Shown here: piece by piece, positions 256-49,232 of the stretch
Layout: each line of letters opens with the position of its first letter
Position numbering within the stretch: position 1 is the first letter of the stretch
Source: a virus
Reading direction: 5' to 3' (one strand)
IMG/VR virus record: IMGVR_UViG_3300028549_000279
DNA: 49,232 nt
The notes under the pieces: model-generated
The model's input: the letters and a program-made list of their open reading frames with translations, nothing else
The model's database searches: none
What the model was told of the DNA's origin: nothing
Position numbers and translations under genes: made by a program

Positions 256-515
256 GCTTCGGCTCATGTAACGGACGTAATTGGAATCTTGGGTTAATGT
301 ATAACAAAGATGAAGACATAACCGTAGGTTATAGAGCTAAAAAGTTAATGAAAAATAAGTTGCATAATATAGAATCCAGAGGGTATACTAATAAGGAACT
401 TCATCAATTCAGAGGATTACTTAGCTACTACAATGGTATTGAGCCTGCTTATTTTGCACCTTATTTAGAACGTGCTAAAGCATTACCATTACATCCAGAA
501 CCAGAAACAGAATAA
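1..515 (+). CDS. Retron-type reverse transcriptase, C-terminal part (continues 48413..49232 across the junction; codon phase starts at nt 3)
   Basis: The frame is open from nt 3. It contains LPQGAPTSPFLANL (RT motif 4), YTRYADDILIS (YxDD motif 5) and LSVNRDKT (motif 6). It is in phase with the ORF that starts at 48413. Confidence 0.9.
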   Translation, partial: IIRYCTLNNCLPQGAPTSPFLANLAMQGCDTEITAYCKRLGLTYTRYADDILISSPVKFKANEVAEAISTILLRKNLSVNRDKTRFGSCNGRNWNLGLMYNKDEDITVGYRAKKLMKNKLHNIESRGYTNKELHQFRGLLSYYNGIEPAYFAPYLERAKALPLHPEPETE

Positions 516-668
516 TGATACAGTCGCAGATTTATCCAAAACCGCAGCAACATGCTGTCATATAGGATGGCATCTAATTAGGTTAGATGTATTACGTTGT
601 TCAAAAGTTACTATGTACCTCCTCCACATGGAGGCGTACATGATACATGGACTGTATAGGAGAAACAA

Positions 669-824
669 ATGAACCAATCAGAACGAAATCTTTTAGCAAC
701 ACTCAGCTTAACCTTTAGTAAATCTTGGATACAAAGAGCATCTAAACACACTCTAAAACAAGTAAAGGCTCAGTTGGTAGAAATTATTAATCTAATCAAC
801 CAAATATTGGAGGAAACCAAATGA
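669..824 (+). CDS. Hypothetical small protein (51 aa; MNQSERNLLATLSL...)
   Basis: ATG at 669 is preceded by AGGAG. The stop TGA overlaps the ATG of the next gene (ATGA at 821-824). It is below the ORF-track length cutoff. Confidence 0.5.
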   Translation: MNQSERNLLATLSLTFSKSWIQRASKHTLKQVKAQLVEIINLINQILEETK

Positions 825-1246
825 AGAAACAAGACCTAAGAGAACTGTTGGTTAATGGAAGTACTGTAGTTACTGCAGACCATGACATCTATATGGTAGT
901 GTACAGCGACCTTTTTGAAACTAATCTATTAATTTCCACAGAATCTGGAAACTACCTTGAAGTAGGTGTTGTAACAGAAGATATGTACGTACATGAAAGT
1001 AAAGTTCCAGATTCTAAGATAGTATTAGTCTTCCCTAAAGAAGCAGCAATAATCGAAAAAGATATAGTACGCATCAAAAAAGATGCAGTACCAACCTACG
1101 ATATACGCAATGAAATATCTGAAATAAGTGCGTGTACAGTGTGTGCTAAACAAAACTGTGATAGACGTAAAGAGCTAGAAACAACTGATAAAGATAGAAA
1201 TGCTGAGATGCTTTTAAAATTACTCAGCGCATTAGTAAGAGAATAA
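821..1246 (+). CDS. Hypothetical protein (141 aa) between the RT and the structured element
   Basis: GGAGGA lies 7 nt upstream of the ATG, which is translationally coupled to the 669 ORF. No motif recognised apart from a CxxCxxxxC cluster near the C-terminus. Confidence 0.6.
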   Translation: MKKQDLRELLVNGSTVVTADHDIYMVVYSDLFETNLLISTESGNYLEVGVVTEDMYVHESKVPDSKIVLVFPKEAAIIEKDIVRIKKDAVPTYDIRNEISEISACTVCAKQNCDRRKELETTDKDRNAEMLLKLLSALVRE

Positions 1247-1260
1247 GTTTCGCCATATGT

Positions 1261-1495
1261 TACGCAATAGCATATCGTCATTCAGTTTAGATTTATCTAA
1301 GCCATGACCAAGCTAACTAAGTTAGCTTGTACAACAACGTGAGTACAGATGTTTATTGCCTCCTGCAGTTAACAGGTAACCTGGAGCTGCTGGAGATGAT
1401 ATTCATACTGGAAAACCGTCCTCTATCATCTCCAGCAGCTCCAGGTTACCTGTTAACTGCAGGAGGCAAACACACACGGATAATTGTATTGCGTA
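1261..1495 (+). ncRNA. Candidate retron-like msr/msd noncoding RNA (hypothesis)
   Basis: TACGCAATA (1261-1269) and TATTGCGTA (1487-1495) form a 9-nt inverted repeat, and G1270 sits in an A-G-C context right after the 5' repeat. Two short hairpins (1285-1302, 1309-1329) are followed by a perfect 45-bp stem (1356-1469). It lies on the same strand as the RT and about 750 nt downstream of it. Confidence 0.35.
1356..1469. repeat. Perfect 45-bp inverted repeat with a 24-nt spacer (long hairpin/cruciform)
   Basis: Arm 1356-1400 (ttgcctcctgcagttaacaggtaacctggagctgctggagatgat) is the exact reverse complement of 1425-1469. The loop is 1401-1424. No T-run follows on either strand. Confidence 0.97.
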
Positions 1496-12571: not shown

Positions 12572-12600
12572 AGAAGCAGCTAAAAGCTGCTTCTTCTTGT
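12572..12600. terminator. Bidirectional rho-independent terminator at the convergence of the two arms
   Basis: agaagcagct/agctgcttct forms a 10-bp stem (12572-12581 / 12585-12594). T-rich runs follow on both strands. It overlaps the stop codon of the giant ORF. Confidence 0.6.
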
Positions 12601-15600: not shown

Positions 15601-18600
15601 CTCACCAGCATCATCTAACACGGGACGTGGAGTGAATAGCGCACGCTCATGTTCTGGAATAAGTCCAACTAATTTACGTGATTGATTCTCTTTCATGTAG
15701 TCAATAGCTCCAGAAAAACCAGCTGCAGACGATTCTTTGTGTGCAAACAGCTGTGCAAAAGTATCAAAGTCAAGTTCTTTTAACTTAGCTGGGTTGTCAC
15801 GGTATTTATAAAAGTATTCGTGCACAATATCTCCAGTAACATTTCCATATTCTTCTAGCATATCTGCGTAGATTTCACCATATCTGTTGTTCATTTCTGT
15901 AGCATTGCCCATGTATTTGAATAATGCTACATCTCCTGCAGCTGCATATGCATTCATACCAGAACCTGCACGGTTTCTAAGTGCTGCACCAAATGGAACG
16001 CCAAACAGCCAGCCTAAACTACGTGTACTTCTAACACGTTGTGACCAGAGATTGTACATTTCCATCATGTGCACACGCGTGTCAGTTGCATTTTCTGCAC
16101 GCCAGTTTAATGTTTCACCTTTTGCAAATGCTTTCATCTGCATCAGCACTTCATTAGGTGTACAGATAACACGTGGGTCATTCATAGCATTAATAAAATC
16201 TCCATGGCTGTCTAACTTAATCTGTTTAATCTCCCAGATTTGTTCTCCATGTTTATTGGTTGCTATCTCACCTTTGTGTAATACATAACCATTGTTGATA
16301 AGAGAACGATTAACACTTCTAAAATCTGGCGCAATGTTACTAGCTTCAATCATGTGTCTTAAACTCTGTGTAGGGTTATCATACAGCGCAAAGTAATCTG
16401 TAGTAGCTTCTAAGTTATTACGCACATGATGAATACCTGCACCAATGTTACTAAGTACATTATCTGTGTAGTATGGATTTACCTTTTTAAAATCTGTTGA
16501 ATCTCCAATAATACTACACATAAAGGAATCATCAAACCATCTAAATCCAGAGCCAGAGTTTATAAGCCCAAGGTCTAGGTGGGCTTCTTGTGGGAACATT
16601 TCATAAATAGCATTAACAGCATCCTGTGTAATTACGTCACCAGTAGAAAAGTAATAATCAGCAGGCATGTACTTAGAAAGTTCATCTGTTAATTTTGTGT
16701 ATGCTTTGTGTGTGCGTGCTTCTTCAACAACATGCTGATAAAATTCTGCATCACTCATGTACAAACTAGCTGTCGCACTGCGTTTATAAATAGCTTTGAT
16801 AGCGCTTAACTTATCAAAAGGAATATTAGGATTTGCATTTGCACGTACTATGGCAGCTTTATATTCTGATATACCGTCTTCTAGCATCTTCTGTATACCG
16901 TGTTGGTGGTTCAAGTACCCACTAGGCACTACGGCTTTATCATAAGTTCTAAGGAATGTGTTAAGCTCAGAGCCTCTGAGTCCAGACATATCTTTGTATA
17001 TCTTTAGTACATTATCTTCGTAGCGTACAATAAGTTCGGTCTGTTCTTTTAATTCATCCAGCTTTTTATATAACAGATTAGTCATTCTACTATCATTGAA
17101 TATCTCTGCACGTGGATTAATAATAAGAGCATTCTTACAATTACGGATAACATGTGCTGTAAAGTCTGCGTTATTTAATGATAATACATTCATGGCTACG
17201 GTCTGCTTATGATTTTTAGAGAATGAACCAACCATACGTTTGTACTCACTAAACTGTTTACTATAAGTATTATTTTGTATAGCATTGAATACAGGGTTGT
17301 CATCGTGTATAGAATAATGTTCTGCCCGTGGTGCGTAAGAAGTAATACTATCAACGAAGTCCTTGAACGGAGTGTTCACTGTAGCAAATAAAGTACCTTT
17401 GATTCGTTCTTTAGGAGATAACATTCTGTTATCTTCATACAAACTATCTAATGTGGCAAGATATCCATCGAAAGAGTGCATCTGCTCTGCAAGCGTATCT
17501 AGTAATTCCATGTCAGCTGAGAATTCATTAGCCTGCGCAACTGGGCTTGCGTACCTTGATGCAACGATTTTAGCACGTGCACCGTCATAAACTACAGTTC
17601 TGCCTTTAGCACTTAATAAATCAGTAGCTTCTTGCACAAGAGAATCTACGCTGTATATTTTTGATTGTATATCTGCATCTAAACTAGCAACTAATTTAGA
17701 TGGAATACTTCTACGTAAATCAGCGCACACTGCGTAAAGTTGTACTTTATCCATACCTGTAATGTTTAATGCTTTTAATGCAAACAATTTATCATCATTG
17801 CCTGGAGTTTTCTGTGCAAATTTTTCAAACAGTTCTAAAAATATATTTGCGTAATCATGGTAGTCTTGTTCTGGGATTACTTCTGCTAACTCTGGGTATG
17901 CTACTTCATTGTACGTACGTTCAAGGTTAACAAGTAAACGCTGTACGGCTGAGTGATTAGGAGCGTAATCTGGAGCTACCTTAGCTAAATCAAACCACGC
18001 TTTCATGTGTACCATGTTAATGTCTGTAATTAAATTATAATTGAAATCATGTCCGATATTCTCACGTATTAAATTCATACAGTTTAATCTTACAGGCTTT
18101 ATCTTGTTACCAGACTCAGCTTCAACTAATTTACGTAGCGCATATTCATCTATGAATACACCATTTAAACCATCCATAGCTTCTGTGTTTGCATGGATAG
18201 AATTTCTATATGCCATTCTTAAATTCTTTAACTGTTCCTGTGCTGTATCTAATAATCCTGTTGGGAGCACCATGCCTTGTTGTAGTATTGGGCGTGCGCT
18301 GTCCATCTCTCTAATTAAGATTCCTATTGCGCCATCAATACCGTCTTCTGGAGAGGATACTAAACCAGCAACTGCTATATCATGCAGTGTGTTCTGCCCA
18401 ACACCGTGTTCTATTGCGTGTTCCATGGTATCTCTAAGTGCTGCTACTGTTTCTTTAGGGACAACTGGGATATGGTTTTCATGTCTGATAACATTGGCTA
18501 TGTCAATCATCATTGTTTCATGTACGTCCATAACGTGTCTACGTACCAGTAACTCTAAGTATCTATCCTGGTTATTACCCATAGTAGAGTTATTAAATCC

Positions 18601-21600
18601 AATGAAACGTAACTGTTTGCCCTCTTTACCAGCTTTAGTTTTAAGTGTGTACATATAATCATCAACCATACGTAAGTATTCATCTTCATCAACACCTGCG
18701 TGTGTATTAACAACTTGATTATACTGTGCAAGTGCGTCTTCAAATGAAACACCGTACACAGATTCAGTACTACCTTTAACAGCAAAAGGAATATCTGAAT
18801 TTCTAAATGTGCTGAGTTCTCCATCGACTTTGAATGAAAGCATAAAAGGAATCGTGTGTTTGTTTGTCATGGATGCACTGTACACAACATCTATATACTT
18901 ATCATCTGCATCTTCCAGTACTTCTATGATTCCTTTTTGGTTCACATCTGCTAAGAGTTCTTCAATCTTAGCAACATTCTGTGTAGTATCAACTGTGTTA
19001 CATCCTTTGCGCCATAGTTTAACACCGTCACCGTTAGGTGTTTGCATATGGTGTGTACCCATAATAAAATCTACAGCATTATCTACGACTGTATCTGTAA
19101 TCTTATCTGCTACACGTGAAATAGCACCAGGGGAGTTATAGTTCAGTTCATTGAATGCACGGTTGATATATTTAGCATTGCCAGCAATCGCATCTAAGAA
19201 CCCTGTGATAAACACTTTATCAACACCCTTGCTATCTAGTGCAAGTACTGATTTAAAAAGTTCTGTGTGGTTAGCGTATTCACACAATTTAACATACACA
19301 GTATTTAATGCGTGCACATATTCTTTATGCTCCTCTTTACCAGCCAGTACATACCCAGCTTCCCAAAGAGTATCATAACTAACCCCTTTATAATCAAGGA
19401 GTTCTGTAGTGTACTTCTGTAAATCTGGATTGTTAATATAAGCTGCTGATTTAGATAGTTTATCTAAATCAATACGGTACAACCTACTCAGACGTTCTGT
19501 ATCTAATGAACCATCTGCTGTCAAACAATCTTCAACACCATGCTTTAATGTTTCTAATACTTTGTCTGGTGTGATAGGAACGTTAGTCTGCTGTGTAAGA
19601 TTTGTTGCAATGGTTGTACATAAGTCACGCAGGTTGTTCTGAGTAAAGTCTGGCATATCTTCAAATGTATTTACTTCATCCTTAATAGGATTATGGTAAT
19701 TTGCCAGGGCTGTGTTGATACGCTGTGTCTCTATCTTATCTAGGTATGAATTAGTAAGTGCGTGTATTTTTATGTTGGACTCAGACAACTTTCTAAATGC
19801 ATCTTCTACTAACTTTCTACGTTCAGTAGAAACAGACATATACATAGCAGAAGTAAACGTATCAAACAATGTAGTAAGATTAGCGTGCGCTTCTTTAAAT
19901 ATAGCTGCTGTTTGTTGTTTAGACATAGTATTAAAATCATCTATTATAGAGTTGTATAGTGTCTTGTATTCCCCTACCATTCTGTTATAAGATGCTTTTA
20001 ATCCAGCTCCATTACCCTCATATGTAAATGTGAGCATTCTATAAGGAACATCAGTTAACGAGGACTGTATAACTGTGTGTGCTTTATCAGTGACATCTTT
20101 AAGCTCTTTCATTTTAGAGATACGTCCATCTGCACGCAGGATAACATATTTCTTTTGTAACTGTCTAAGCCTAGCGATAGCTGCATTATCAAACGTAGTC
20201 TTGTACAGCTCAATATTCTGTGTCATAAGTTTCAGATACTCTGGGAAACTCTGTACGTGCGCAAAGCTAGTTCCTTTAGTGAGGTCTGCGCAGTATTTAT
20301 CAAGTGCAGCTATTGTATTATCAGCTGATTTACCAGAACTCATAATACTCTGAAACGCAGTAAGCTCTATATTACTCTGGCGTTTTGCAATACCAGCAAC
20401 TACACTAGAAGTGTATTCATCTAGTATTTTGTTATCTAAAAGATGTGCTACACTATTTACTTCTTTAGAAACTAATTCTGCAGCAGCACCAAGCTGTATA
20501 GTGAGCACACTTTTAGACCCTCCAATAGCAAGTTCATTGGAAAGTTTATTACTGATACGCTCTGTAACACTGCCTATAATTTTTGCATTGGCAGGATTAA
20601 CAGCTGCTACAGTTGTAACAAGGTTTCTAATTCCTCTGAGTGTATCCCTAGCTAGTATAGGTGGAACTGATACGGCAAATAACATACTGTCTATTTTATT
20701 TAACACCTTTGGAACTGTTGATAAAGATGCTATAACTTTATAACTAGTTCCTAATGAAGTAGGTAAGTTATCTGCAGCCTTTGCAGCTGCTGTAGTGAGT
20801 GCAAGTTTTTGAGATTTGTGCGCATCCATAAATTTAAGTGCACTATTTTTAGGAACACTTTCTAAATGCTTTGCATATGTGAGTGGGTTTCTTGAAACAG
20901 AACTTTTGATTCCTTGCATAGCTTTCTTTAAGAACACATCCTGCAGTTGTTCCCCTTGCACTATAGCTGCGCTTATAATTTGTTTTGCATATTTAGAGAC
21001 AGCTAACTCAGATGCATCAATACCAGCGTCTGTCCAAGTAGCTCTAAGTACATCTTCTAACTTATTAACTGCTGTAGTTTGTCCAGAAGCTGCTACTTTA
21101 ATTCCTGCATTAACCCAGGTTGCTGGGTCAAACATAATCTCTAAAGCAAGCTGTGTAACAAACCCACTAGCTCCCATAGTTTCATCGCTTCTCCAAAGCA
21201 TATCATATTCATAAGATGGAGTTGTACCATTAGCACCCCAAGCATCCATCCAAGCGTTAACACCCATTCTGTCTGCTACAGTTAATTCCCCATGATTTGT
21301 TTTCGCATCTTCATATAACTTTTTTAAATTGATGTTATTCTTTAAGTTCTCTTTAAGAACCACTTCATCATTAGCCATATTAATACCTACAGCAAAAGGC
21401 TTCACTAAGTAATTACTAATATCAAAAGTTTCTGCAAGATTTACAAATACATTATTTAACATGATACCTGCAGCAGTACCTAGTAGGTTAGTGAACGCAG
21501 GAACACGCGCAGCTATAAAAGACTCTGTGGATATAGCAACCTGTTTTTGTGTGTCTGACAGGTTATCATATTTAGGGTCTTTATATTTTTCAATGATTTC

Positions 21601-22992
21601 ATTAGAAGCAAGTTTAGTAATATCTCCAGCTTCTTCCCAGTGGTCTGTTAAATAATTATATGGCTTTACTACAGACTGTGCAAACACAGAAAGTATATCT
21701 GTGATAACATTAGTGCCATTATCAACATCAAAAGCAGACCGAGATATTTGACGCACTAAAGCATCTTTAAAAGAATTGACTTGTTCAGCACTGTACATAT
21801 CGGACATGTAAATATCATTCTCTTTAGATTTCTTTTTAGCATTCTCAAATGTAATTGCTGCATCATTAATCTGTTTAAGATACGCTTCGTTAGGTAGTAT
21901 ATTGATGTTACCATCTTGTACGCGCCCCTCATACTGATTTAGGAGCGTGCGCTCGATTTTAGAAAGTCTATCGACATTTGTTCCAGGAATATTTCCAGCC
22001 TGTGCACGAGCCTTTAGAGTCTCGTAGAAAGCATATTCATCTGCACGCATTCCTTTAGCGTTTAATCTTTTGTTAGCTTCATCATATTTGCCTAACCATT
22101 TAGAGTATGCTTCTTTGTATGTGTTTGCACTATCATCATACATACCAGACACTACCTGTCTACGAGCAACTAAGGTCTGGTATTTATCATAGTCTTCTTG
22201 CTGTAATGTAAGTCCGTCCTCAGTTTGAATAGCAGTCTTTTGAATATTATCAAGTTCTTTATCCAGAGCTTCTATCTCTGTGATATAGTTCTTTGCTTTA
22301 TCTTCAAAATAACTACTACATGTATCCATGAGAATACCATATCTGGAAGTATCATCTTTTGCATCAGCATATTCATCATCTGGTTTAGCGTATTTATACA
22401 ACGAGAAAGAGCCATCCTTATTAGGGATAGCTATAACAACCTTATCTATATTAGAAATTCCACTGAGTCTTTCCTTTCCTATCGTTGGAAATTCTGAATC
22501 AGCATACCGTGTATTCTCTGTGAGTGCATCCCCATCATCTAAAAACCAAGTCTGGAGTGTGTTGTTATTTGCTGCATCCTGTATTCGTTTCTGTGCATCT
22601 GCAGTCACAGTGTTCACTTTAAACTTTGTGTTGTTGGACATGTTTGTTGGTGGTGTGTACACAGGTGCGATGTCTGGTTTAGTTACAGGAGTGTGTGCAG
22701 GCACACCTTGTACAGTTGTTTCTTTCTTAACTTTATTAATACCATCTTCAATATCAAGACGGTCTGTAAATACTCTGTGTTCAGCTGTTTCTAAGAAAGG
22801 ATTAGACTGTACTACTTGTTTCTTGCGCAATACTTTCTGCTCAATAGGGTCTGCTTGTTTGAACTGCTTAACCTTTTTTGCTGCTTGCTCTGCTTTGTAT
22901 TTATTAGAATAAGGTAAAACAGAGATAGCGTCCTTTTTAGGGACGCTACTTTTTGTTGCAAAAAGATTTGGCGTAGTCTTTTTACCACTCAT
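12580..22992 (-). CDS. Giant virion-associated protein (3470 aa); putative internal/ejection protein, function unknown
   Basis: A single uninterrupted ORF with an AGGAGA RBS, and the last gene of the late operon. It has C-terminal tandem repeats and a basic tail. I recognised no enzymatic motif. Confidence 0.9.
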   Translation of the reverse strand: MSGKKTTPNLFATKSSVPKKDAISVLPYSNKYKAEQAAKKVKQFKQADPIEQKVLRKKQVVQSNPFLETAEHRVFTDRLDIEDGINKVKKETTVQGVPAHTPVTKPDIAPVYTPPTNMSNNTKFKVNTVTADAQKRIQDAANNNTLQTWFLDDGDALTENTRYADSEFPTIGKERLSGISNIDKVVIAIPNKDGSFSLYKYAKPDDEYADAKDDTSRYGILMDTCSSYFEDKAKNYITEIEALDKELDNIQKTAIQTEDGLTLQQEDYDKYQTLVARRQVVSGMYDDSANTYKEAYSKWLGKYDEANKRLNAKGMRADEYAFYETLKARAQAGNIPGTNVDRLSKIERTLLNQYEGRVQDGNINILPNEAYLKQINDAAITFENAKKKSKENDIYMSDMYSAEQVNSFKDALVRQISRSAFDVDNGTNVITDILSVFAQSVVKPYNYLTDHWEEAGDITKLASNEIIEKYKDPKYDNLSDTQKQVAISTESFIAARVPAFTNLLGTAAGIMLNNVFVNLAETFDISNYLVKPFAVGINMANDEVVLKENLKNNINLKKLYEDAKTNHGELTVADRMGVNAWMDAWGANGTTPSYEYDMLWRSDETMGASGFVTQLALEIMFDPATWVNAGIKVAASGQTTAVNKLEDVLRATWTDAGIDASELAVSKYAKQIISAAIVQGEQLQDVFLKKAMQGIKSSVSRNPLTYAKHLESVPKNSALKFMDAHKSQKLALTTAAAKAADNLPTSLGTSYKVIASLSTVPKVLNKIDSMLFAVSVPPILARDTLRGIRNLVTTVAAVNPANAKIIGSVTERISNKLSNELAIGGSKSVLTIQLGAAAELVSKEVNSVAHLLDNKILDEYTSSVVAGIAKRQSNIELTAFQSIMSSGKSADNTIAALDKYCADLTKGTSFAHVQSFPEYLKLMTQNIELYKTTFDNAAIARLRQLQKKYVILRADGRISKMKELKDVTDKAHTVIQSSLTDVPYRMLTFTYEGNGAGLKASYNRMVGEYKTLYNSIIDDFNTMSKQQTAAIFKEAHANLTTLFDTFTSAMYMSVSTERRKLVEDAFRKLSESNIKIHALTNSYLDKIETQRINTALANYHNPIKDEVNTFEDMPDFTQNNLRDLCTTIATNLTQQTNVPITPDKVLETLKHGVEDCLTADGSLDTERLSRLYRIDLDKLSKSAAYINNPDLQKYTTELLDYKGVSYDTLWEAGYVLAGKEEHKEYVHALNTVYVKLCEYANHTELFKSVLALDSKGVDKVFITGFLDAIAGNAKYINRAFNELNYNSPGAISRVADKITDTVVDNAVDFIMGTHHMQTPNGDGVKLWRKGCNTVDTTQNVAKIEELLADVNQKGIIEVLEDADDKYIDVVYSASMTNKHTIPFMLSFKVDGELSTFRNSDIPFAVKGSTESVYGVSFEDALAQYNQVVNTHAGVDEDEYLRMVDDYMYTLKTKAGKEGKQLRFIGFNNSTMGNNQDRYLELLVRRHVMDVHETMMIDIANVIRHENHIPVVPKETVAALRDTMEHAIEHGVGQNTLHDIAVAGLVSSPEDGIDGAIGILIREMDSARPILQQGMVLPTGLLDTAQEQLKNLRMAYRNSIHANTEAMDGLNGVFIDEYALRKLVEAESGNKIKPVRLNCMNLIRENIGHDFNYNLITDINMVHMKAWFDLAKVAPDYAPNHSAVQRLLVNLERTYNEVAYPELAEVIPEQDYHDYANIFLELFEKFAQKTPGNDDKLFALKALNITGMDKVQLYAVCADLRRSIPSKLVASLDADIQSKIYSVDSLVQEATDLLSAKGRTVVYDGARAKIVASRYASPVAQANEFSADMELLDTLAEQMHSFDGYLATLDSLYEDNRMLSPKERIKGTLFATVNTPFKDFVDSITSYAPRAEHYSIHDDNPVFNAIQNNTYSKQFSEYKRMVGSFSKNHKQTVAMNVLSLNNADFTAHVIRNCKNALIINPRAEIFNDSRMTNLLYKKLDELKEQTELIVRYEDNVLKIYKDMSGLRGSELNTFLRTYDKAVVPSGYLNHQHGIQKMLEDGISEYKAAIVRANANPNIPFDKLSAIKAIYKRSATASLYMSDAEFYQHVVEEARTHKAYTKLTDELSKYMPADYYFSTGDVITQDAVNAIYEMFPQEAHLDLGLINSGSGFRWFDDSFMCSIIGDSTDFKKVNPYYTDNVLSNIGAGIHHVRNNLEATTDYFALYDNPTQSLRHMIEASNIAPDFRSVNRSLINNGYVLHKGEIATNKHGEQIWEIKQIKLDSHGDFINAMNDPRVICTPNEVLMQMKAFAKGETLNWRAENATDTRVHMMEMYNLWSQRVRSTRSLGWLFGVPFGAALRNRAGSGMNAYAAAGDVALFKYMGNATEMNNRYGEIYADMLEEYGNVTGDIVHEYFYKYRDNPAKLKELDFDTFAQLFAHKESSAAGFSGAIDYMKENQSRKLVGLIPEHERALFTPRPVLDDAGEISHVLYEEVESAQKIYQKVFNKHAHEVKKEAAIIKEEVRKALELSKLYTTEQVEILSKLYIYYIPSNDMAMEMIQRIPLAGKALSGYLNFNKAQFSAAEDVTRTGMAMYYADKFGMSMNRANQEVIASQFDYSNRSLGMDIIETLFPFSTFKIYNTAFWMFDAPNRFNAIRTMTKYGRAAQLEYDSEELMLMNRNIALREKIASGELNYQDNKEDTEDPGFLSSVINAYTGVPSLYSENGGNIALGKNHVLKAGNTFVDALSMVQSVFMAIPELLSGQVPSIFADNIYAPISTLLQKVIPYMLMGEGADWDEVLRENYYDLFDLVPLLGGLVNLAMTHLKTGNLSVADLQAINTNPQLQNEYGYRLSESLFDVLGMVMPSVVGTVSDKQSYMDRPVGTNWYEQTDEYKKTHRYVFGISAVPSFFTKNPETYVDYYGLYTKMGYEEEEVGHILSWMFGTPRPQEYQYKDDEINAALESLVDKGYTADEAIRLIQRVWLGATNIEEVDDRIRNLAFLKKYDMLPDYIKYEDGQYAQLKAWYKAQGYTVEQMWNLMSTQNPYIDEQGDVRYLTQTQADELTSSLNTEYIEYMNGLPDWMQYEPGASTRTIAYLIGNGIVADIDQARDYITANHFYVDPKGKAVTYTDAENAAKEATSSTEFKTYYNNLPEYIKYEKGAFSRTISWLTKNGASSEEAKAMIKDGAYLTVDGRLIDCRGLKSKGVQKWGALTPEEIAEFQAYFAKLPDYIKYEKGAYKRILRHLMDKEGMSYEDAKSYMLKNYVDVDANGKLVLYSQKDIDKMKTDKDAAFKAFYDSLPDYIKFEKGAYSRTYAYLKAQGYDKATIMNMIKEGAYLSLATPSGGAKIINVKGLKKPRRVRRPNRRFVNNYKARFKKQRKPFKNKRSFGRTYSATNSRRGHKFGAQTTQKITLGYNRTRTVLGMASGLPASYRNVAHSNRKNMYREMYAKYGLSRMTIRSNAWNSYSNASITRLRRNEIKNKMKYQTRRSSF
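12997..14040 (-). repeat. Five tandem in-frame repeats of about 56-76 aa (216-228 nt) within the giant ORF
   Basis: Each unit starts LPDYIKYE(D/K)G, LPDWMQYEPG, LPEYIKYEKG or LPDYIKFEKG. This is followed by an A(Y/F)SRT..(Y/W)L...G....A..(M/Y)I segment and a D..G(K/R/D)(L/A/V) segment. It corresponds to aa 2985-3332. Confidence 0.9.
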
Positions 22993-38342: not shown

Positions 38343-38390
38343 GGGGGTTTAGGAATATTATTAGGGGAAATAAAACGTAAGTTATTAGAG

Positions 38391-38410
38391 CAAAACAAAC
38401 AAACAAACAA
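38391..38410. repeat. (CAAA)n microsatellite
   Basis: The sequence is caaaacaaacaaacaaacaa. Confidence 0.9.
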
Positions 38411-38416
38411 TAACTC

Positions 38417-38459
38417 TTTATATTATATATAATATATACTAATATATAGTAATTTAAAA
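38417..38459. repeat. Near-pure A/T tract 1 (TATA-type low complexity)
   Basis: The sequence tttatattatatataatatatactaatatatagtaatttaaaa contains only one C and one G. Confidence 0.9.
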
Positions 38460-38467
38460 CCCACCCC
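38453..38467 (+). promoter_or_regulatory. C-rich box copy c (TTTAAAACCCACCCC)
   Basis: It shares TTTAA-(N0-2)-CCCACCCC with the boxes at 43465 and 48379. No ORF follows this copy. Confidence 0.4.
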
Positions 38468-38751
38468 TACCTATCGCAACACTACCTTTTACGTAGCCAA
38501 CTCTCTCTCCACTACTGGTCATCATACTATAACATTTAATTTTCATTCACCTAACAGCGTAGCAAGTGGGTGTCTCATTGTGCCTCGCCCCTGTCGGCTC
38601 GGGTAATCTCACTTGAATTGTCATATACTTTAGAACAATTTAAACATTAGCTTCATTATTACGTATTAGTTAATTGTCAGACAGCTTGACTTATTATCAT
38701 ATGATTTGAGACAGGGTATGAATGAACACACTTTTTTAGTTTTTAAATATT

Positions 38752-38773
38752 GTATACGGTTCCATATACAGAA
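38752..38773. repeat. 22-mer repeat, copy 1 (gtatacggTTccatatacagaa)
   Basis: It is identical to 38999-39020 except for the central TT/AA, so the core GGTTCC is the reverse complement of GGAACC. Confidence 0.9.
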
Positions 38774-38850
38774 CACCCCTTTACCCCCTATTCCCTACTA
38801 TCCCACTAGGATATAATAGTCTGTCTTCTTTCCTTATTGTCTTACTATTC

Positions 38851-38906
38851 TTTTTATATTATATATTATTTATATATTATATTATAGTATATTATATATT
38901 ATTATA
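38851..38906. repeat. Near-pure A/T tract 2 (56 nt, candidate DNA-unwinding element)
   Basis: The sequence tttttatattatatattatttatatattatattatagtatattatatattattata contains a single G. Confidence 0.9.
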
Positions 38907-38946
38907 CATATATCTAAACTAAATAAGCTAATAAGGAAATATAGAG

Positions 38947-38962
38947 ATAGATATATATCTAT
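38947..38962. repeat. Perfect 16-bp palindrome ATAGATATATATCTAT
   Basis: It was checked to be self-reverse-complementary. Confidence 0.9.
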
Positions 38963-38998
38963 ATAACAAGGAAGAAATAGAGAGCAAAAGAGAGTAGC

Positions 38999-39020
38999 GT
39001 ATACGGAACCATATACAGAA
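38999..39020. repeat. 22-mer repeat, copy 2 (gtatacggAAccatatacagaa)
   Basis: See copy 1. The two copies bracket A/T tract 2 and the palindrome. Confidence 0.9.
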
Positions 39021-39059
39021 TTAAAAAAATAAATAAATTCATTTTCCAAAAACAGGGCA

Positions 39060-39093
39060 GTGTTCGATTAGTGTTCGGGAACATTTGTTCGAT
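39060..39093. repeat. Three TGTTCG(A/G) direct repeats
   Basis: gTGTTCGAT (39060), gTGTTCGGG (39071) and tTGTTCGAT (39085), spaced 11 and 14 nt apart. Confidence 0.8.
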
Positions 39094-39288
39094 ATAAATA
39101 AGTTATCTCATTTGTCACACTATTCCAACACACAAAAGATAGTAGGCTACATTGCTTCCACAACTCAGCACCATAAGCACTCAGCTATATCACATCTCAC
39201 ATATCCATCGCCCCAGACCCAAAACCCAAGACAGGGCACACTGAACCAGCTATCCACAACCATACTTAATAATCTATAATAAGTATGA

Positions 39289-39336
39289 TGTGTTTGTGAG
39301 TATAACAAGAACTATATAAAATATAGTGTGTTTGTG
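39289..39336. repeat. Two TGTGTTTGTG direct repeats 38 nt apart
   Basis: The copies lie at 39289-39298 and 39327-39336, each followed by (t)agta. Confidence 0.8.
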
Positions 39337-39440
39337 TAGTACCAGTGGAGATGATGATTGATTGGCAACATTGTTTCCACTGTCCCCTAAACACAACACT
39401 AGGTCAAAACATTAATTTCCTAGTACTTTCATACGGGTAT

Positions 39441-39737
39441 ATCTGACATCGTGTCAGATGAACCCTTGCTTATGCAAACCAGACTGAGGCACGTCTCGTC
39501 TCACGCCTCGCTATTTCGGGTGCGGGTGTCTAACACATCCATGTGTTAGCCAGCCTACTTGCGACGTGTGCGTGCTAAGGCTTGTGCATCTCTGTAAACG
39601 AGATGCCTAATACCAAGCCTAAGCGTGCACATTGTATCGCCCCTTGTAAACAACAACTTCGTCAAGGGTACAATATTCAGGCAAGACATCACCGCGACAC
39701 GAGCACGATACTTCTTAATGTGGTATTAAGAAGTATC
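39441..39737 (+). ncRNA. Candidate structured noncoding RNA (family unknown)
   Basis: A GC-rich island in AT-rich DNA holds five hairpins: 39441-39459 (8 bp, 3-nt loop), 39530-39549, 39568-39630, 39641-39668 and 39707-39737. The third has 16-bp outer and 7-bp inner stems with two G-U pairs valid only on the plus strand. The fifth is a 13-bp perfect stem followed by TGATTGTTGATTG. No ORF with an RBS is present. Confidence 0.3.
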
Positions 39738-39815
39738 TGATTGTTGATTGAATATTGTATAACAATTTTATAAACGCACATAAAACAAAAGCGTGCATAA
39801 AATTCTTACAAGCCC

Positions 39816-39844
39816 TTGACTTTGTTTTCGGGGCGATGTTTTAT
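39816..39844 (+). promoter_or_regulatory. Possible early promoter (plus strand)
   Basis: TTGACT (39816-39821), a 17-nt spacer, then TTTTAT (39839-39844). The -10 box is weak. Confidence 0.3.
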
Positions 39845-39962
39845 ATGTATAGTTTTTTAAATTAGCTTCCTTAGAACCACTGCTAAGTAAATAACTATAT
39901 GTAACTATTAATTTAATTTAAGTAACTATTAACTTAACTCACAGAAAGAAATAGGTAGAAAC

Positions 39963-40421: not shown

Positions 40422-40879
40422 AGAAAGTCAACATTCTCTCCCCCTCCGAGTACAAAATAAAAGCTGATACACTTGAAGAATTAAAACAAATACAATTTGA
40501 GATTTCCCAGTTAAACTGGGAGACTCTCAACTGTATCTGGAATCAAGCACAGAATGTAACACAGCTTGATGAACTGCTTACACAAGCAATTGAACATTTC
40601 AATTTTCAAGAAGATGAATCAGCTGAAAGATTAGGACATGCTTTCCAATATGATATAAGAAATCCTGGAAAGTTTTGTTACTCTTTCAACAGTGTACAAT
40701 CTGAAAAGTATACAGAACATATTGAAGTATACAAACCATCTGTTCTAACAAAGTTCAGAGAGTTAACTCAATTACTTGCTTATAACATGTTTGGGATTGA
40801 GAAAGACTGGACAGAATCTGAATCACTTGTACTTCCATTAAGCGCATGTGACTTAGGTATTCAGCTCTACTGTCAATAA
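40418..40879 (+). CDS. Hypothetical early protein (153 aa)
   Basis: An AAGGGG RBS is present and a strong terminator follows. Confidence 0.65.
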   Translation: MKKVNILSPSEYKIKADTLEELKQIQFEISQLNWETLNCIWNQAQNVTQLDELLTQAIEHFNFQEDESAERLGHAFQYDIRNPGKFCYSFNSVQSEKYTEHIEVYKPSVLTKFRELTQLLAYNMFGIEKDWTESESLVLPLSACDLGIQLYCQ

Positions 40880-40883
40880 AAAC

Positions 40884-40912
40884 AAGACCTGGCTAACCCC
40901 AGGTCTTTTTTT
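40884..40912 (+). terminator. Rho-independent terminator
   Basis: aagacctgg-ctaacc-ccaggtctt (9-bp stem) is followed by TTTTTTT. Confidence 0.85.
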
Positions 40913-40957
40913 ATACTACGTAACGGACGTTACATAAATATAAGTTGTTGGCAAGTT

Positions 40958-41111
40958 GAGTGTGTAGTAAGAACCAACCCCACGAGCATAGTGCCGCTTG
41001 TGTGTTTTGGATCTTACTACACGCTCCCTTGTTGCCCTGCTTTCTATTTAAAAATAATCTACGCGCTTCACAAGGACTGCGCAGAGTTGAAACAAAAAGA
41101 TGTTTCACTCT
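40958..41111 (+). other. Hairpin-rich noncoding segment (possible small RNA or leader)
   Basis: A 15-bp stem (40958-40972 / 41012-41026, one G-U) encloses a 7-bp inner stem. A second hairpin lies at 41083-41111 (11 bp, one bulge). The ORFs called here lack an RBS. Confidence 0.35.
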
Positions 41112-41168
41112 TGCTCCATCCCCTAAACAATTCTACTCACTACTCTTACTCACCGAACCCTAAGAGCT

Positions 41169-41200
41169 AGGTCAAGTACAAGGTCAAGAACCAGGTCAAG
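41169..41200. repeat. Three AGGTCAAG iterons with an exact 12-bp period
   Basis: AGGTCAAG occurs at 41169, 41181 and 41193. A fourth CTAGGTCAA lies at 39399-39407. The iterons are followed by a (T)CGCTCGC mini-repeat at 41206-41228. Confidence 0.85.
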
Positions 41201-44504: not shown

Positions 44505-44741
44505 ATGATTAATTTAACAATCGGAACAAACACAGAAAGAAAAACAGCAATAGTGGAGCCAGACAGACCACTTAAAGACATCCTTAGAGAGAATGAAATC
44601 AATACCGCAGGTAGTGCACTTCATCTTAATGGAAGTTTGATTGCAGGAGTAGACGCAGACAGTTCATTAGCAGAACTGGGCATTGCAGATGGTTCCTCGG
44701 CAATGTTAATTGCAGTCGTTAAGGCTGACTCAGCAGCTTAA
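44505..44741 (+). CDS. Ubiquitin-like beta-grasp (ThiS/MoaD-like) protein, 78 aa, C-terminus ...KADSAA
   Basis: The pattern MINLTIG....V....PLKDIL......LHLNGSLI......LAELGIADGS.MLIAVVK matches the ThiS/MoaD-type Ubl layout. It is followed by JAB and E1-like genes. Confidence 0.5.
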   Translation: MINLTIGTNTERKTAIVEPDRPLKDILRENEINTAGSALHLNGSLIAGVDADSSLAELGIADGSSAMLIAVVKADSAA

Positions 44742-44828: not shown

Positions 44829-46715
44829 ATGCCACTATTAGCAAGCAGTAAAGAAGATTTATTAAATCGTATTATAGGATTAACCAGTTTGAATATTCGT
44901 ACAGATTTGTACAGAGCACGTTCTCCTGTAGATTTTGGAGACTTAAATACTATACTACACCTATTAAACGCACCTACCATTAATGAACTTGAAAACTACA
45001 GTGATGATAGACGAAACAACAGCATACCACAGAGAATCCGCAGCATAAGACTTGTATCAAGAACCTTACCACGTGGTACTGATGTACAAGAACTCAATAA
45101 ATTTTTTAGAAACTTCCTACTAGAAAACCTTTTCATGTATGGACTGCCATGCTCATGGATACATAGAAGTACACGCAACAATATGAACTTTGCACAGTAT
45201 AAAGATGATGAATCTTTTGAACTCAACAGTATTGTGCCAGGAATGAGCAGAGAAGCTATGTTAGAAGAAAAAGCACGCCCTAATAGCAGACTGGCTTCTA
45301 TAACAGTACTTAATGATTACAATTGTGGAGCTGCATCTAACACATACTTTAGCACATTAGTAGAGAATGGAATGTTAGAGGCTATGCCAGAGTACATATT
45401 ACCTATGACACAGCATCCTAACCATCGCGTAAAACTCTACAAAGTAATAGCTATCCCAGAAATTCTAGGGATACATGATATGTTCGTATGCACAACAAAC
45501 ACATATAACTCACAGGTTTTATTACAGACATTAGCTGCTGCATTACCTACTATATGTGAAGCTGTACAAGAAGAAATAAAACCTCTTATAGAGGTAGCAA
45601 AAGACAATATGTTACGACAAGTCCCTAACACATCCAATAACATGAGAGACTGGTGCTATGAACACTATGGCGATTACCTTGAAACCATTGAAGAAACAAG
45701 ACGTACAGCTGCTATTAACACATTAATAACACAAATGTCTTCTGGAGCTCTTGCAAATATAGAACAAAAAATCGCAAATGTAAACGATATAATCAATGAT
45801 TATTATTCAGCATTACGAGATAGTTATAAACTGTTAGAAGTGGCACAAATAGAGCACCTCAAACTAATTACAGGCAGTGGCACAGAAAAAATAGAAGAAT
45901 TCAAAAACTTCTTAATTGCATCTTCAAACACCTACACAAATTATGAGGTGCGCAATGACGGAGACGGCAACATTAGATTCTCCTTGCTAGTCAACACACC
46001 TTTATTATATTGGGATGAAGCACAATACAAAATGCTACGTGAATCTACACGTGATAACAGAGTAACCTTATTAGGTAGTGCGCACAAACAATACTTCGAT
46101 GATATTCTTTTAAATAAAGCTATAATCTTAAATATGGAATCTGGGGTATCATTCAATTTAAGTGTAACAAACCCAGGTGTTTCATACGCAGATATAGCTG
46201 ATAGACAAATAAGTACAAATGATAGAAAAGGAATGTCTAATCCACATCACAGATACCATCAATGTTTTGGTAATAACAAAATGCCGATACACAATGCTAT
46301 AAGAGAGCAAGACTATGTAACATTAATCTGTCAAGCAGCTGCAGCAGTAGCAGGTATTAATATATCGGATGGAACTGTAATGGGTAAATTCTTTGATACA
46401 GGCAGAGACTTATCTGAATTGAAATATGCAAAGATACTTACAGTAGTAGCTACAAAAGAACGTATCTCTCCTAATGAGTACTTCCAACGCATCAAAACAG
46501 TAGGTAATAAAAGTATTACAGAATGGTTAGCAGTACAAAGTGCAACTCTGACTACACCTGTTGGAACAATACCAACAGAACTTCCTATTGAAGACCAAGG
46601 TGAGTTCACAATGCCAACAGCAGTTCCACATCAAGACATAGCAGATGCAGTTACACAAGCAATGGAATTTATAGATGAATTTGAAGACACTGAAAATAAT
46701 GGTGACCCATTCTAA
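44829..46715 (+). CDS. Large protein of unknown function (628 aa) in the Ubl/JAB/E1 cluster
   Basis: AAGGAGG RBS. The next gene starts 12 nt after its stop. No canonical motif; NPHHRYHQCFG is a possible Cys active-site context. Confidence 0.8.
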   Translation: MPLLASSKEDLLNRIIGLTSLNIRTDLYRARSPVDFGDLNTILHLLNAPTINELENYSDDRRNNSIPQRIRSIRLVSRTLPRGTDVQELNKFFRNFLLENLFMYGLPCSWIHRSTRNNMNFAQYKDDESFELNSIVPGMSREAMLEEKARPNSRLASITVLNDYNCGAASNTYFSTLVENGMLEAMPEYILPMTQHPNHRVKLYKVIAIPEILGIHDMFVCTTNTYNSQVLLQTLAAALPTICEAVQEEIKPLIEVAKDNMLRQVPNTSNNMRDWCYEHYGDYLETIEETRRTAAINTLITQMSSGALANIEQKIANVNDIINDYYSALRDSYKLLEVAQIEHLKLITGSGTEKIEEFKNFLIASSNTYTNYEVRNDGDGNIRFSLLVNTPLLYWDEAQYKMLRESTRDNRVTLLGSAHKQYFDDILLNKAIILNMESGVSFNLSVTNPGVSYADIADRQISTNDRKGMSNPHHRYHQCFGNNKMPIHNAIREQDYVTLICQAAAAVAGINISDGTVMGKFFDTGRDLSELKYAKILTVVATKERISPNEYFQRIKTVGNKSITEWLAVQSATLTTPVGTIPTELPIEDQGEFTMPTAVPHQDIADAVTQAMEFIDEFEDTENNGDPF

Positions 46716-48292: not shown

Positions 48293-48307
48293 GCAACATT
48301 GAAGCCG

Positions 48308-48344
48308 TAAGGCTACTAATTAGTATTTACTAAAGGTAGCCTTA
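48308..48344 (+). other. Hairpin between the E1-like gene and the RT (possible terminator or processing site)
   Basis: taaggctac/gtagcctta forms a 9-bp stem with an inner 5-bp ttagt/actaa stem. The downstream sequence is tagcatctttt. Confidence 0.4.
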
Positions 48345-48378
48345 TAGCATCTTTTAAGTACCATATGGTTATTTCATT

Positions 48379-48412: not shown

Positions 48413-49232
48413 ATGTTTTTGAATTACTATTCTAAACCTCGTATTCGTACCACTGGTACGATGGAACAATTACAAAAGGAACTCCAATACAACCAGGGTA
48501 GGATTATTACTAAAACTGTGACCACACCAGGAGTAAACCAAACTACAAGAAATAAAGTAAGAAACACACTTTATAAATTACAAAATAAATTAAGAGAAAC
48601 TAATATTCAATTAGTAAACACTAATATTAGTGCGATGCCATCTATGTACCACCTTGTTAAGATACCAAAGAAAACAGGTGGGTACAGAGAGTTAATGGTA
48701 CCAGATGAAGAACTCAAAGAGTTTCAACGGATTATTTTAGATACTCTGCAGAATAAATTAAAAGTACTACCTCATAATGCGGCTCATGGGTTCACTAAGC
48801 ACAGAAGCTGCTATACAGCAATACAAGTACACCAACAAGCACACGCACGTTGGTTTCTAAAAATGGATATTAAAAACTTCTTTACAAGTGTACATACTGA
48901 ATGGTTATTATCAACACTACAAGAAAATGCTGCAATATGCATAATGAATGCAAGTACAGCACGCAATTTTGAAGACTCAATCATTAGATATTGTACACTT
49001 AACAATTGCCTACCACAAGGAGCACCGACCTCTCCTTTCTTAGCAAACCTGGCTATGCAAGGTTGTGATACAGAGATTACAGCGTACTGCAAAAGACTAG
49101 GACTTACCTACACACGCTACGCTGATGATATTTTAATCAGTAGCCCTGTTAAATTTAAAGCAAATGAAGTAGCAGAAGCTATATCTACTATCCTACTACG
49201 GAAAAACTTATCTGTTAATCGTGATAAAACAC
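48413..49232 (+). CDS. Retron-type reverse transcriptase, N-terminal part (open at the window end; continues at nt 3..515; 359 aa when joined)
   Basis: ATG 48413 has AAGGAGG 8 nt upstream. Motifs seen: KIPKKTGGYRELMVP (RT1), LKEFQRIILDTL (2), HNAAHGFTKHRS (NAxxH, 3), FLKMDIKNFF, LPQGAPTSPFLANL and YTRYADDILIS. It is absent from the ORF track because no stop falls within the window. Confidence 0.9.
   Translation, partial: MFLNYYSKPRIRTTGTMEQLQKELQYNQGRIITKTVTTPGVNQTTRNKVRNTLYKLQNKLRETNIQLVNTNISAMPSMYHLVKIPKKTGGYRELMVPDEELKEFQRIILDTLQNKLKVLPHNAAHGFTKHRSCYTAIQVHQQAHARWFLKMDIKNFFTSVHTEWLLSTLQENAAICIMNASTARNFEDSIIRYCTLNNCLPQGAPTSPFLANLAMQGCDTEITAYCKRLGLTYTRYADDILISSPVKFKANEVAEAISTILLRKNLSVNRDKT

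Follow-up and report, generated by a model that had tools for sequence, protein, structure and literature searches.

A probable phage-borne retron with candidate template RNAs downstream of its reverse transcriptase, linked to an E1-like/JAB gene cassette

Introduction

Retrons are currently viewed as bacterial or prophage-borne abortive-infection systems whose non-coding RNA (ncRNA) is assumed to be single-copy and to lie upstream of the reverse transcriptase (RT). By definition, the ncRNA has hybridising terminal repeats (a1 and a2 below), a conserved branching G at the 3' end of a1 whose 2'-OH serves as primer, one to three msr hairpins and one long msd stem, arranged in the order (msr-msd)-RT, and the RT carries the catalytic YxDD motif, NAXXH in region X (H most conserved) and VTG in region Y (G most conserved) (Mestre et al. 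2020, PMC7736814). Retrons on phage genomes are known from temperate phages and prophages: Ec67, Ec73, and Ec86 are found in P2/186/P4-like elements, and type VI retrons in P2-like and Mu-like phages (PMC8867640, PMC8541194). The retron literature consulted covers bacterial systems and temperate-phage or prophage cargo, with msr-msd-RT order and with effectors. We found no description in it of a retron conserved across an apparently virulent phage lineage, of ncRNA arrays downstream of the RT, or of an RT linked to an E1/JAB cassette. Here we analyse IMG/VR virus record IMGVR_UViG_3300028549_000279, a stretch of 49,232 nt (the window, by which we mean this whole stretch), that encodes a retron-type RT followed by structured ncRNA units. 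Judging from sequence and predicted folding, the two are likely to form a complete phage-carried retron in an unusual layout.

With bacterial retrons, in particular stand-alone (msr-msd)-RT cassettes and type II-A/St85-like RTs, the locus shares the RT clade (by hidden Markov model and PDB comparison), the NAXXH and YADD motifs, and units closed by terminal repeats that contain one to three msr hairpins and one long msd stem. The geometry in which a1 is followed by G and a2 is preceded by an unpaired G is presumably the same as in Ec86. The phage RT differs from these retrons in its invariant NLG at the place of VTG, a ~45-aa N-terminal extension and a sub-cutoff St85 score; moreover, no known effector is present, and the genes form a near-core cassette of apparently virulent phages and are not located on bacterial chromosomes. 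The retrons of temperate phages and prophages also place a retron-type RT on a phage genome. However, those are sporadic accessory genes of lysogens that protect the lysogenic host and come with msr-msd-RT order and effectors, whereas here we see a lineage-wide cassette in the early/replication arm of phages in which no integrase was found.

The genes beside the RT recall Cap2 (E1-E2) and Cap3 (JAB) of the type II cyclic oligonucleotide-based antiphage signalling system (CBASS), as well as the Bil and Bub ubiquitin-like operons of bacteria: an E1-like protein and a JAB protein stand next to a nucleotide-polymerising enzyme, along with a candidate ubiquitin-like protein (Ubl) whose C-terminus is conserved and may be trimmed. 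In contrast to those systems, no E2 domain is detected here, ThiF is a minimal E1 of 230 aa, JAB has no Cap3 model match, the candidate Ubl ends in ...DSA-x and not in Gly, and the cassette also occurs RT-free elsewhere. DRT2, DRT9, and other UG/Abi systems likewise combine an RT with an adjacent structured ncRNA template, from which non-genomic cDNA is made there and would be made here. Yet the RT class differs (Drt2 57.5 versus retron 209.5 bits), and the phage units have an a1/a2-G architecture and not a rolling-circle or homopolymer template.

Results and discussion

An RT gene across the circular junction

The terminal overlap of the window is exact (1-255 = 48978-49232), which leaves a unique circle of 48,977 nt. 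Joined over the junction (ATG 48413-49232 plus 256-515), the RT frame runs without interruption to TAA at 513-515 and encodes 359 aa, in line with a preliminary description of this DNA that had been made from its letters. That description had also considered that the overlap might be an assembly artefact breaking the frame. A Logan contig from an unrelated run (SRR21758068, locus L197, 22.8 kb) shares 4,950 nt with the window at 100% identity, a stretch that begins at 45413, crosses the junction and ends at 1385. Because this independent assembly is identical across the junction, the junction is genuine, and an artefact is excluded. The identical full-length RT protein is called on three other contigs.

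An in-frame upstream ATG at 48365 would give an alternative protein of 375 aa, 16 residues longer (as in P0001). The start at 48413 is favoured because AAGGAGG is located 7 nt 5' of it and all orthologue N-termini begin at the equivalent residue (MFLNYYSK/MIYINYLSK). The 5' part of the gene encodes the conserved N-terminal extension, RT motifs 1-5, NAAH (aa 122-125), and YADD (aa 236-239), and each motif quoted in the preliminary description is present in the protein (KIPKKTGGYRELMVP, HNAAHGFTKHRS, FLKMDIKNFF, LPQGAPTSPFLANL, YTRYADDILIS, and LSVNRDKT).

The spacer between the ThiF gene and the RT gene (120 nt) holds a 9-bp stem (TAAGGCTAC...GTAGCCTTA) followed by a T-rich run at 48306-48346, possibly a terminator or attenuator preceding the RT gene. 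In two relatives (L003 and L007) this spacer is just ~10 nt long, which leaves no room for an ncRNA upstream of the RT.

The RT is of the retron type

Every profile library tested (PADLOC and NCBIfam) as well as the PDB matches support the preliminary assignment to the retron-type RTs. Of 94 PADLOC matches, the best 25 are without exception to retron RT models; RT_II-A leads (1.7e-58), followed by III-A, I-A, and XIII. In NCBIfam, the retron St85 family (NF038233) scores 209.5 bits against 126.7 for the group II intron RT. The top PDB matches are all retron RTs: 9n69 (3.6e-30), Ec83 (7e-28), Ec78, an St85-family RT, and Ec86 (4.6e-23), while group II RTs match at ~1e-13 only. The similarity to Ec86 that had been seen by eye is real and spans residues 51-336, though other retron RTs match better. 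Pfam finds RVT_1 alone (aa 84-277, 3.2e-32) and no other fused domain; the lack of a maturase or endonuclease domain agrees with the preliminary description.

In an alignment of 48 orthologues, H125 of NAAH and Y236, D238, and D239 of YADD never vary, and conservation at N122 and A124 is 90% or higher. The GRNWNLGLM block of region Y likewise has four invariant residues (N282, W283, N284, and G286), with L285 conserved to 90% or more. In the PDB comparison N284-L285-G286 aligns to VTG, in line with the replacement proposed in the preliminary description. The conserved N-terminal extension of ~45 residues is specific to this RT family. These comparisons support a retron-type RT of a distinct clade, outside every named retron family. 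The gene family itself is present in databases, without prior interpretation: some IMG gene calls are labelled "retron-type reverse transcriptase", and PHROG 2825 ("polymerase") also exists.

One could alternatively suppose that the RT belongs to another class, being a group II remnant, a member of a diversity-generating retroelement (DGR), or a UG/Abi/DRT enzyme, and that the hairpins next to it are unrelated terminators, promoters, or repeats. The group II (126.7 bits) and Drt3a/Drt2 matches are weaker than the retron ones yet significant, and VTG is not conserved. However, the retron models are ahead by at least 80 bits, and in the PDB the E-values for retron RTs are 17 orders of magnitude better than those for group II RTs. 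The group II model (TIGR04416, cutoff 300) is matched in its RT region alone, and the UG/Abi models (Drt3a 68 bits, Drt2 57.5, AbiA 42.4) stay far below both their own cutoffs and the retron score. Besides the lack of a maturase or endonuclease domain, there is no template repeat/variable repeat pair: no direct repeat of at least 30 nt involves the RT neighbourhood, and low-identity repeats occur inside structural genes only. A DGR identity was rejected on this ground. Together with the position and joint loss of the units described below, this makes another RT class highly improbable.

Candidate template RNAs downstream of the RT

The preliminary description had overlooked the putative cognate ncRNAs, which lie downstream and not upstream of the RT (Table 1). 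Retron searches confined to the upstream side of the RT would miss this ncRNA class. Unit A begins with a1 (518-525) and a candidate branching G (G526), continues with a variable hairpin (533-569), a small conserved hairpin (570-590), and an msd stem-loop (612-642), and ends with G649 and a2 (650-657). Its minimum free energy (MFE) fold has z = -3.5, and 0/200 shuffles fold as well. Unit B is built in the same way: a1 (1261-1269), candidate branching G1270, a hairpin (1285-1302), a small conserved hairpin (1309-1329, loop TAA within CTAAG), single-stranded ACAACGT, a perfect 46-bp msd stem (1356-1401/1424-1469) with a 22-nt loop, GATAAT-T-G, G1486, and a2 (1487-1495). Its fold surpasses those of shuffled sequences by a wide margin (z = -18.9). 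When a1-G...G-a2 candidates over the whole 49-kb window were compared on both strands, unit B folded best and unit A second. Rfam gave no match at gathering thresholds; in E-value mode, sub-threshold miRNA-precursor models hit the long stem and are not meaningful.

Table 1. Coordinates of the RT gene, the ncRNA units and the adjacent genes in the window
Feature	Coordinates	Strand	Basis and remarks
Retron-type RT gene, 5' part	48413..49232	+	aa 1-273 plus 1 nt; open reading frame (ORF) and ribosome-binding site (RBS)
RT gene, 3' part (thumb/region Y)	256..515	+	Invariant GRNWNLGLM where retrons have VTG
ncRNA unit A, short, msr-msd-like	518..657	+	a1-G...G-a2 scan; fold; same place and architecture in relatives
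Two small ORFs between units A and B	669..1246	+	51 aa (669-824) and 141 aa (821-1246); restricted to this phage
ncRNA unit B, long, msr-msd-like	1261..1495	+	Inverted repeat; fold z; RNAalifold and pair counts with 17 homologous units
Candidate Ubl (ThiS/MoaD-type beta-grasp), 78 aa (p78)	44505..44741	+	Orthologue alignment; weak hhalign/Foldseek matches
Conserved protein p628, 628 aa (~490 aa in relatives)	44829..46715	+	tblastn synteny; alignment
JAMM/MPN+ (JAB) metalloprotease, 289 aa	46728..47597	+	Motif; profile; AlphaFold2 (AF2) model
Minimal E1-like adenylyltransferase (ThiF/MoeB family), 230 aa	47600..48292	+	Pfam ThiF 1.6e-21; PDB MoeB 2.6e-9

The two small ORFs between the units have good RBSs and are also present in the identical L197 contig. 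They have no tblastn match in 86 related loci and no Pfam, PHROG, or PADLOC match, and look like a moron that landed inside the ncRNA array. The L197 contig breaks off at window position 1385, within unit B's perfect inverted repeat of 46 bp. Short-read assemblies hence appear to be broken by the hairpin, and such arrays may be under-represented in metagenome contigs.

In relatives recovered from metagenomes, 380-655 nt of non-coding DNA directly 3' of the RT is made of two to three tandem units. Each starts with an 8-11-nt a1 and a G, followed by two hairpins, the first variable and the second small with a CTAAG-like loop; then come single-stranded ACAATGT/ACAACGT, a long imperfect hairpin (median 47 pairs), a purine, G, and a2. 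MFE folds computed independently for 21 units from 10 loci and for both window units gave one common architecture, and more than 70 homologous units besides A and B are closed by a1/a2. The structure of the stems is conserved among relatives, their sequence is not. The same RT-ncRNA layout is found in 27 loci derived from metagenome-assembled genomes (MAGs).

We next asked where exact 8-bp Watson-Crick helices with G after a1 and G before a2 are located relative to the RT in 80 non-identical loci. In 37/80 loci a helix begins between -10 and +19 nt relative to the stop codon of the RT, against a background, taken from coding DNA upstream, of 1.5% for each 30-nt bin (binomial test, P = 3.7e-45), and secondary peaks are found at the starts of the second and third units. 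When a1 was located solely by its complementarity to the stretch past the TATAAT anchor described below, with no G required, it was followed by G in 24/33 good helices compared to 10/56 poor ones.

Applied to 18 long units aligned with MAFFT, RNAalifold predicts both a1/a2 and the small hairpin, and 17/18 pairs show compensatory double changes. In a controlled pair count, 89.8% of cells are paired, compared to 30-44% when the partners are slid by 1-3 columns; 0/500 shuffles reach the observed value, and changes on both sides are seen in 16/17 pairs. The small hairpin, which was not used in picking the units, covaries in 9/9 pairs.

In the closest clade (L001-L009 and L014), each a2 is preceded by TATAAT-R-G (GATAAT-T-G at window 1478-1486), and the first a1 often likewise. 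More distant relatives do not have TATAAT, and ...AG alone precedes their a2. Possible readings of the motif are an RT initiation signal and a -10 box. The latter would suit the alternative in which the hairpins have nothing to do with the RT; a promoter was dropped as an explanation, however, as no -35 partner accompanies TATAAT, which occurs in the closest clade only. Neither would unrelated hairpins be expected to start at the RT stop far above chance and to vanish together with the RT.

We also compared mismatches in the long stems of 66 units (L001-L087). By a crude arm alignment, + strand A:C mismatches (G:T in the cDNA) significantly outnumber G:T mismatches (330 versus 187), while RNA-only helices show the reverse asymmetry (11 versus 19). 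If real, this would point to selection on the fold of the DNA product.

Distribution and separability of the RT and its units

The window is a novel tailed phage. It encodes terminase, portal, major capsid protein (31% identical to that of the Paenibacillus podophage API480), PolA, primase-MCM, and RecE-like exonuclease, and the phage context with PolA and primase-helicase that had been described earlier is therefore real. The large ORFs yielded neither an integrase nor a recombinase domain, which bears out the earlier remark that no integrase lies nearby, and no tRNAs were found. The absence of an integrase is consistent with a virulent lifestyle but is not proof of it. The unusualness claimed for a phage-embedded retron also holds, given that, among phages, the retron literature consulted describes temperate-phage and prophage cargo only.

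Among GenBank phages, megablast revealed no close DNA relative, and the best protein match is 28.6% identical. The preliminary description had suggested a search of metagenomic phage contigs for orthologues and conserved neighbours. Single-protein scans of IMG/VR with the RT or SNF2 gave no match; relatives surfaced with alignment queries. More than 570 IMG/VR contigs encode RT relatives, including genomes of ~100 kb, and the RT is near-core in a large phage family with conserved neighbours. The RT family is all but confined to phage contigs, and these stem from gut and rumen samples. More than 100 RT orthologues are 39-47% identical, many of them on 45-51 kb contigs, and the closest relative (P0002) reaches 62%. 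Genomes of 185,579 species contained 27 RT loci only, all in gut, rumen, or termite MAGs, mostly of Clostridia and on phage-sized contigs. The conserved order of genes includes a 78-aa protein, a ~490-628-aa protein, a ~270-aa protein, and ThiF upstream of the RT, and the ncRNA array, p144, p137, SNF2, AAA_24, DUF669, and MCM downstream.

The SNF2 helicase was used as an independent marker of the lineage, defined by SNF2 identity of at least 34%. By this measure ThiF is encoded in 27/27 and the RT in 24/27 contigs of the lineage, compared to an RT in 0/34 more distant phages. Phages of the lineage are ~47-51 kb long and apparently infect gut and rumen Clostridia. The three members that lack the RT (L203, L219, and L222) otherwise keep the same replication genes. 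In two of them, L219 and L222, ThiF abuts p144/p137, and the RT and the entire ncRNA array are both missing. This joint absence argues that the RT and the ncRNAs form one unit, which is separable from the E1/JAB cassette and non-essential for replication.

These observations bear on a possible replication function, in which the hairpins would be an origin or a primosome loading site or the DNA made by the RT would prime genome replication. Long inverted repeats are common at replication origins, as would be expected under such a function, and the cassette heads a replication module (SNF2, AAA_24, primase-MCM, and PolA). However, the replication genes are kept in all three members without the RT, two of which also lack the array. 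The msd sequence has no homology elsewhere in the phage genome, that is, no site to prime on, and the stem sequences are not conserved between relatives. A region at 38343-39962 (see below) is a better origin candidate, and an origin does not explain the covariation of a1/a2 and the msr hairpin or the conserved G. We therefore give a replication function very little credence, and we disfavour the DNA-priming role raised in the preliminary description: some lineage members do without the RT and ncRNAs, and msd lacks genomic homology.

The adjacent Ubl-like/p628/JAB/E1 cassette

The preliminary description also overlooked a cassette of E1-like, JAB, and Ubl-like genes upstream of the RT, with ThiF directly upstream of it (Table 1). 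JAB contains the invariant residues E70 and H128-S-H130-x7-S138-x-x-D141, and its profile aligns this motif to Rpn11. Its AF2 model has a predicted local distance difference test (pLDDT) score of 77 and matches Rpn11/CSN5/JAMM1 in Foldseek with probability 1.0, E = 6e-9, and a TM-score of up to 0.79.

The 78-aa protein p78 is probably a Ubl of the ThiS/MoaD type. Its orthologues are 58-75% identical and all end in an invariant ...IAVVKADSA with one further residue that varies (A/R/K/Q). A Ubl that is trimmed before adenylation would be expected to look like this, yet the end is Ala and not Gly-Gly. By hhalign, p78 matches ThiS weakly (probability 20%), and it has no Pfam match even at E = 10. 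With a single-sequence AF2 model (pLDDT 74), nearly all of the 50 best Foldseek matches are Ubl proteins, all of them weak (E ~0.2).

Directly upstream of JAB, p628 is always encoded. It has a coiled-coil middle and an invariant N471-P-H473...C479-x-G481-x-N483 motif. There are no matches to it in Pfam, PHROG, NCBIfam, PADLOC, or the PDB, where a profile search returned coiled-coil noise only. The homologue search gave 4 close relatives only; two contigs with p628 relatives (L088 and L089) end before the RT. An E2-like reading of the NPH...C motif is unsupported by any informative homologue or PDB profile match.

The linkage is tight in both directions. Starting from the RT, a tblastn search found JAB and ThiF upstream in 79/86 loci, and among the MAG loci ThiF is present in 25/27 and JAB in 21/27. 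Starting from JAB (80 loci), ThiF is adjacent in 78/80, the RT follows in 66/80, and p78 lies beside JAB in 58/80. The E1/JAB cassette also occurs without the RT in at least 12 loci. In an RT-less group on contigs of ~85-134 kb (L122 type; L123-L137), p580-JAB-ThiF is kept and other genes occupy the RT slot. In L122 itself (5660-8017), 8 small paralogous ORFs of 77-105 aa follow ThiF, each ending in ...K(R/K)KNNY(Y/W), and these may be C-terminal-tail substrates of the E1/JAB pair. The linkage of the RT to the cassette points to an unexplored phage ubiquitin-like pathway.

Ten neighbours of the RT were compared with known retron effectors and PADLOC defence models, and no match was found save for ThiF, which matches the E1 part of the CBASS E1-E2 models. 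The word "ThiF" has 0 occurrences in the retron survey, and ThiF plus JAB is not among its effectors (Mestre et al. 2020, PMC7736814).

The cassette raises the possibility that the phage retron works as a toxin-antitoxin-like exclusion system. A complex of the RT with multicopy single-stranded DNA (msDNA) would restrain an effector (p628 with its invariant Cys plus E1/JAB/Ubl), a competing phage or satellite would release it, and the cassette would serve superinfection exclusion and not counter-defence. All characterised retrons described in the sources consulted work by effector guarding. In CBASS type II, an E1 and JAB pair regulates a nucleotidyltransferase, an analogy strengthened by the ThiF match mentioned above. 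The association of the RT with the four-gene cassette from both search sides and the dispensability of the RT-ncRNA cassette, which is like that of accessory defence genes, also fit. On the other hand, none of the neighbours matches a known retron effector, or a PADLOC model past the E1 Rossmann region. E1/JAB is 100% conserved in the lineage and RT-free in at least 12 loci, and hence is not simply the effector of the RT. Moreover, abortive infection is hard to square with a phage that shows no sign of lysogeny, and arrays of several different ncRNAs are foreign to the known tripartite retrons. Overall, we regard exclusion as unlikely and rank it second, behind the role proposed below.

Possible role of the retron-like locus

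If the RT and its units do form a retron, the RT would bind each folded unit during infection. The 2'-OH of G526 or G1270 would prime cDNA synthesis, with the base on the 5' side of the G before a2 as the first template position, and the RT would copy the msd stem and halt before msr. The predicted products are two multicopy branched RNA-DNA species, one with a short DNA hairpin (unit A) and one with a 46-bp DNA hairpin (unit B); the 5' end of the unit B DNA is predicted near AATTATCCGTGTG...

Several observations weigh against this interpretation. The ncRNA lies downstream of the RT in 1-4 different tandem units, whereas that of bacterial retrons lies upstream (Mestre et al. 2020). The RT score of 209.5 bits is below the curated cutoff (235) of the best NCBIfam retron family (St85, NF038233), and the RT falls below the cutoff of every named retron family. 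At the VTG position, which reads N284-L285-G286, G alone is retained. The strict criterion places a unit at the stop codon in no more than roughly half of the loci; a tolerant criterion, which suggests arrays of 1-4 units, finds one in 83/147 loci (56%) with a false-positive rate of 18%. The a1/a2 covariation is biased, as the units were picked by complementarity, while the positional test and the small hairpin are unbiased. The mismatch asymmetry is a trend only and not significant in a strict count (8 versus 3). As evidence for a decoy role, motif enrichment in the stems is weak and confounded. Finally, the tight E1/JAB linkage could mean a protein-directed, defence-like function.

As to function, we tentatively suggest that the DNA hairpins serve the phage as decoys, sponges, or regulators acting against nucleic-acid-directed host defence or repair or against competing phages. 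We favour such a role because stem structure but not sequence is conserved, no known retron toxin is present, and the cassette is dispensable. A decoy for restriction or another sequence-specific activity was considered and dropped: 6-mers are modestly enriched in the stems (CCTGGA 5x, GGAGGC 7x), and this is confounded by GC content and relatedness.

A bolder and rather doubtful proposal is that of an offensive retron kept by a large family of gut and rumen phages, which would produce several DNA hairpins per infection from a tandem, fast-evolving array and thereby titrate or misdirect DNA-sensing host defence or repair. In a radical variant of this proposal the hairpins would be coupled to Ubl/E1/JAB, for example, through conjugation of the Ubl to the RT-msDNA complex. 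If true, either version would represent a new class of anti-defence based on nucleic acids, and DNA phages would be putting reverse transcription to a new use.

Should msDNA be made from these units, phages, and not bacteria alone, would exploit reverse-transcribed DNA. The locus would also offer a natural case of one RT with several tandem templates, which is relevant to multiplexed retron genome editing, and compact RT-ncRNA pairs from Clostridia phages would be new editing parts.

Other features of the phage genome

Between the divergent arms of the genome, an AT-rich non-coding region of 1.6 kb (38343-39962) contains dense short direct and inverted repeats and is likely a regulatory or origin region. 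A strong fold (-119 kcal/mol over 353 nt) is predicted on the minus strand at 40828-41200, a region that also contains an inverted repeat of 20 bp (40958-41026) and three tandem repeats of 12 nt (41162-41200). In the structural arm, a single ORF of 3,470 aa (12580-22992, minus strand) takes up 21% of the genome; it has no Pfam domain and carries internal repeats with a period of ~220 nt around 13.1-14.0 kb.

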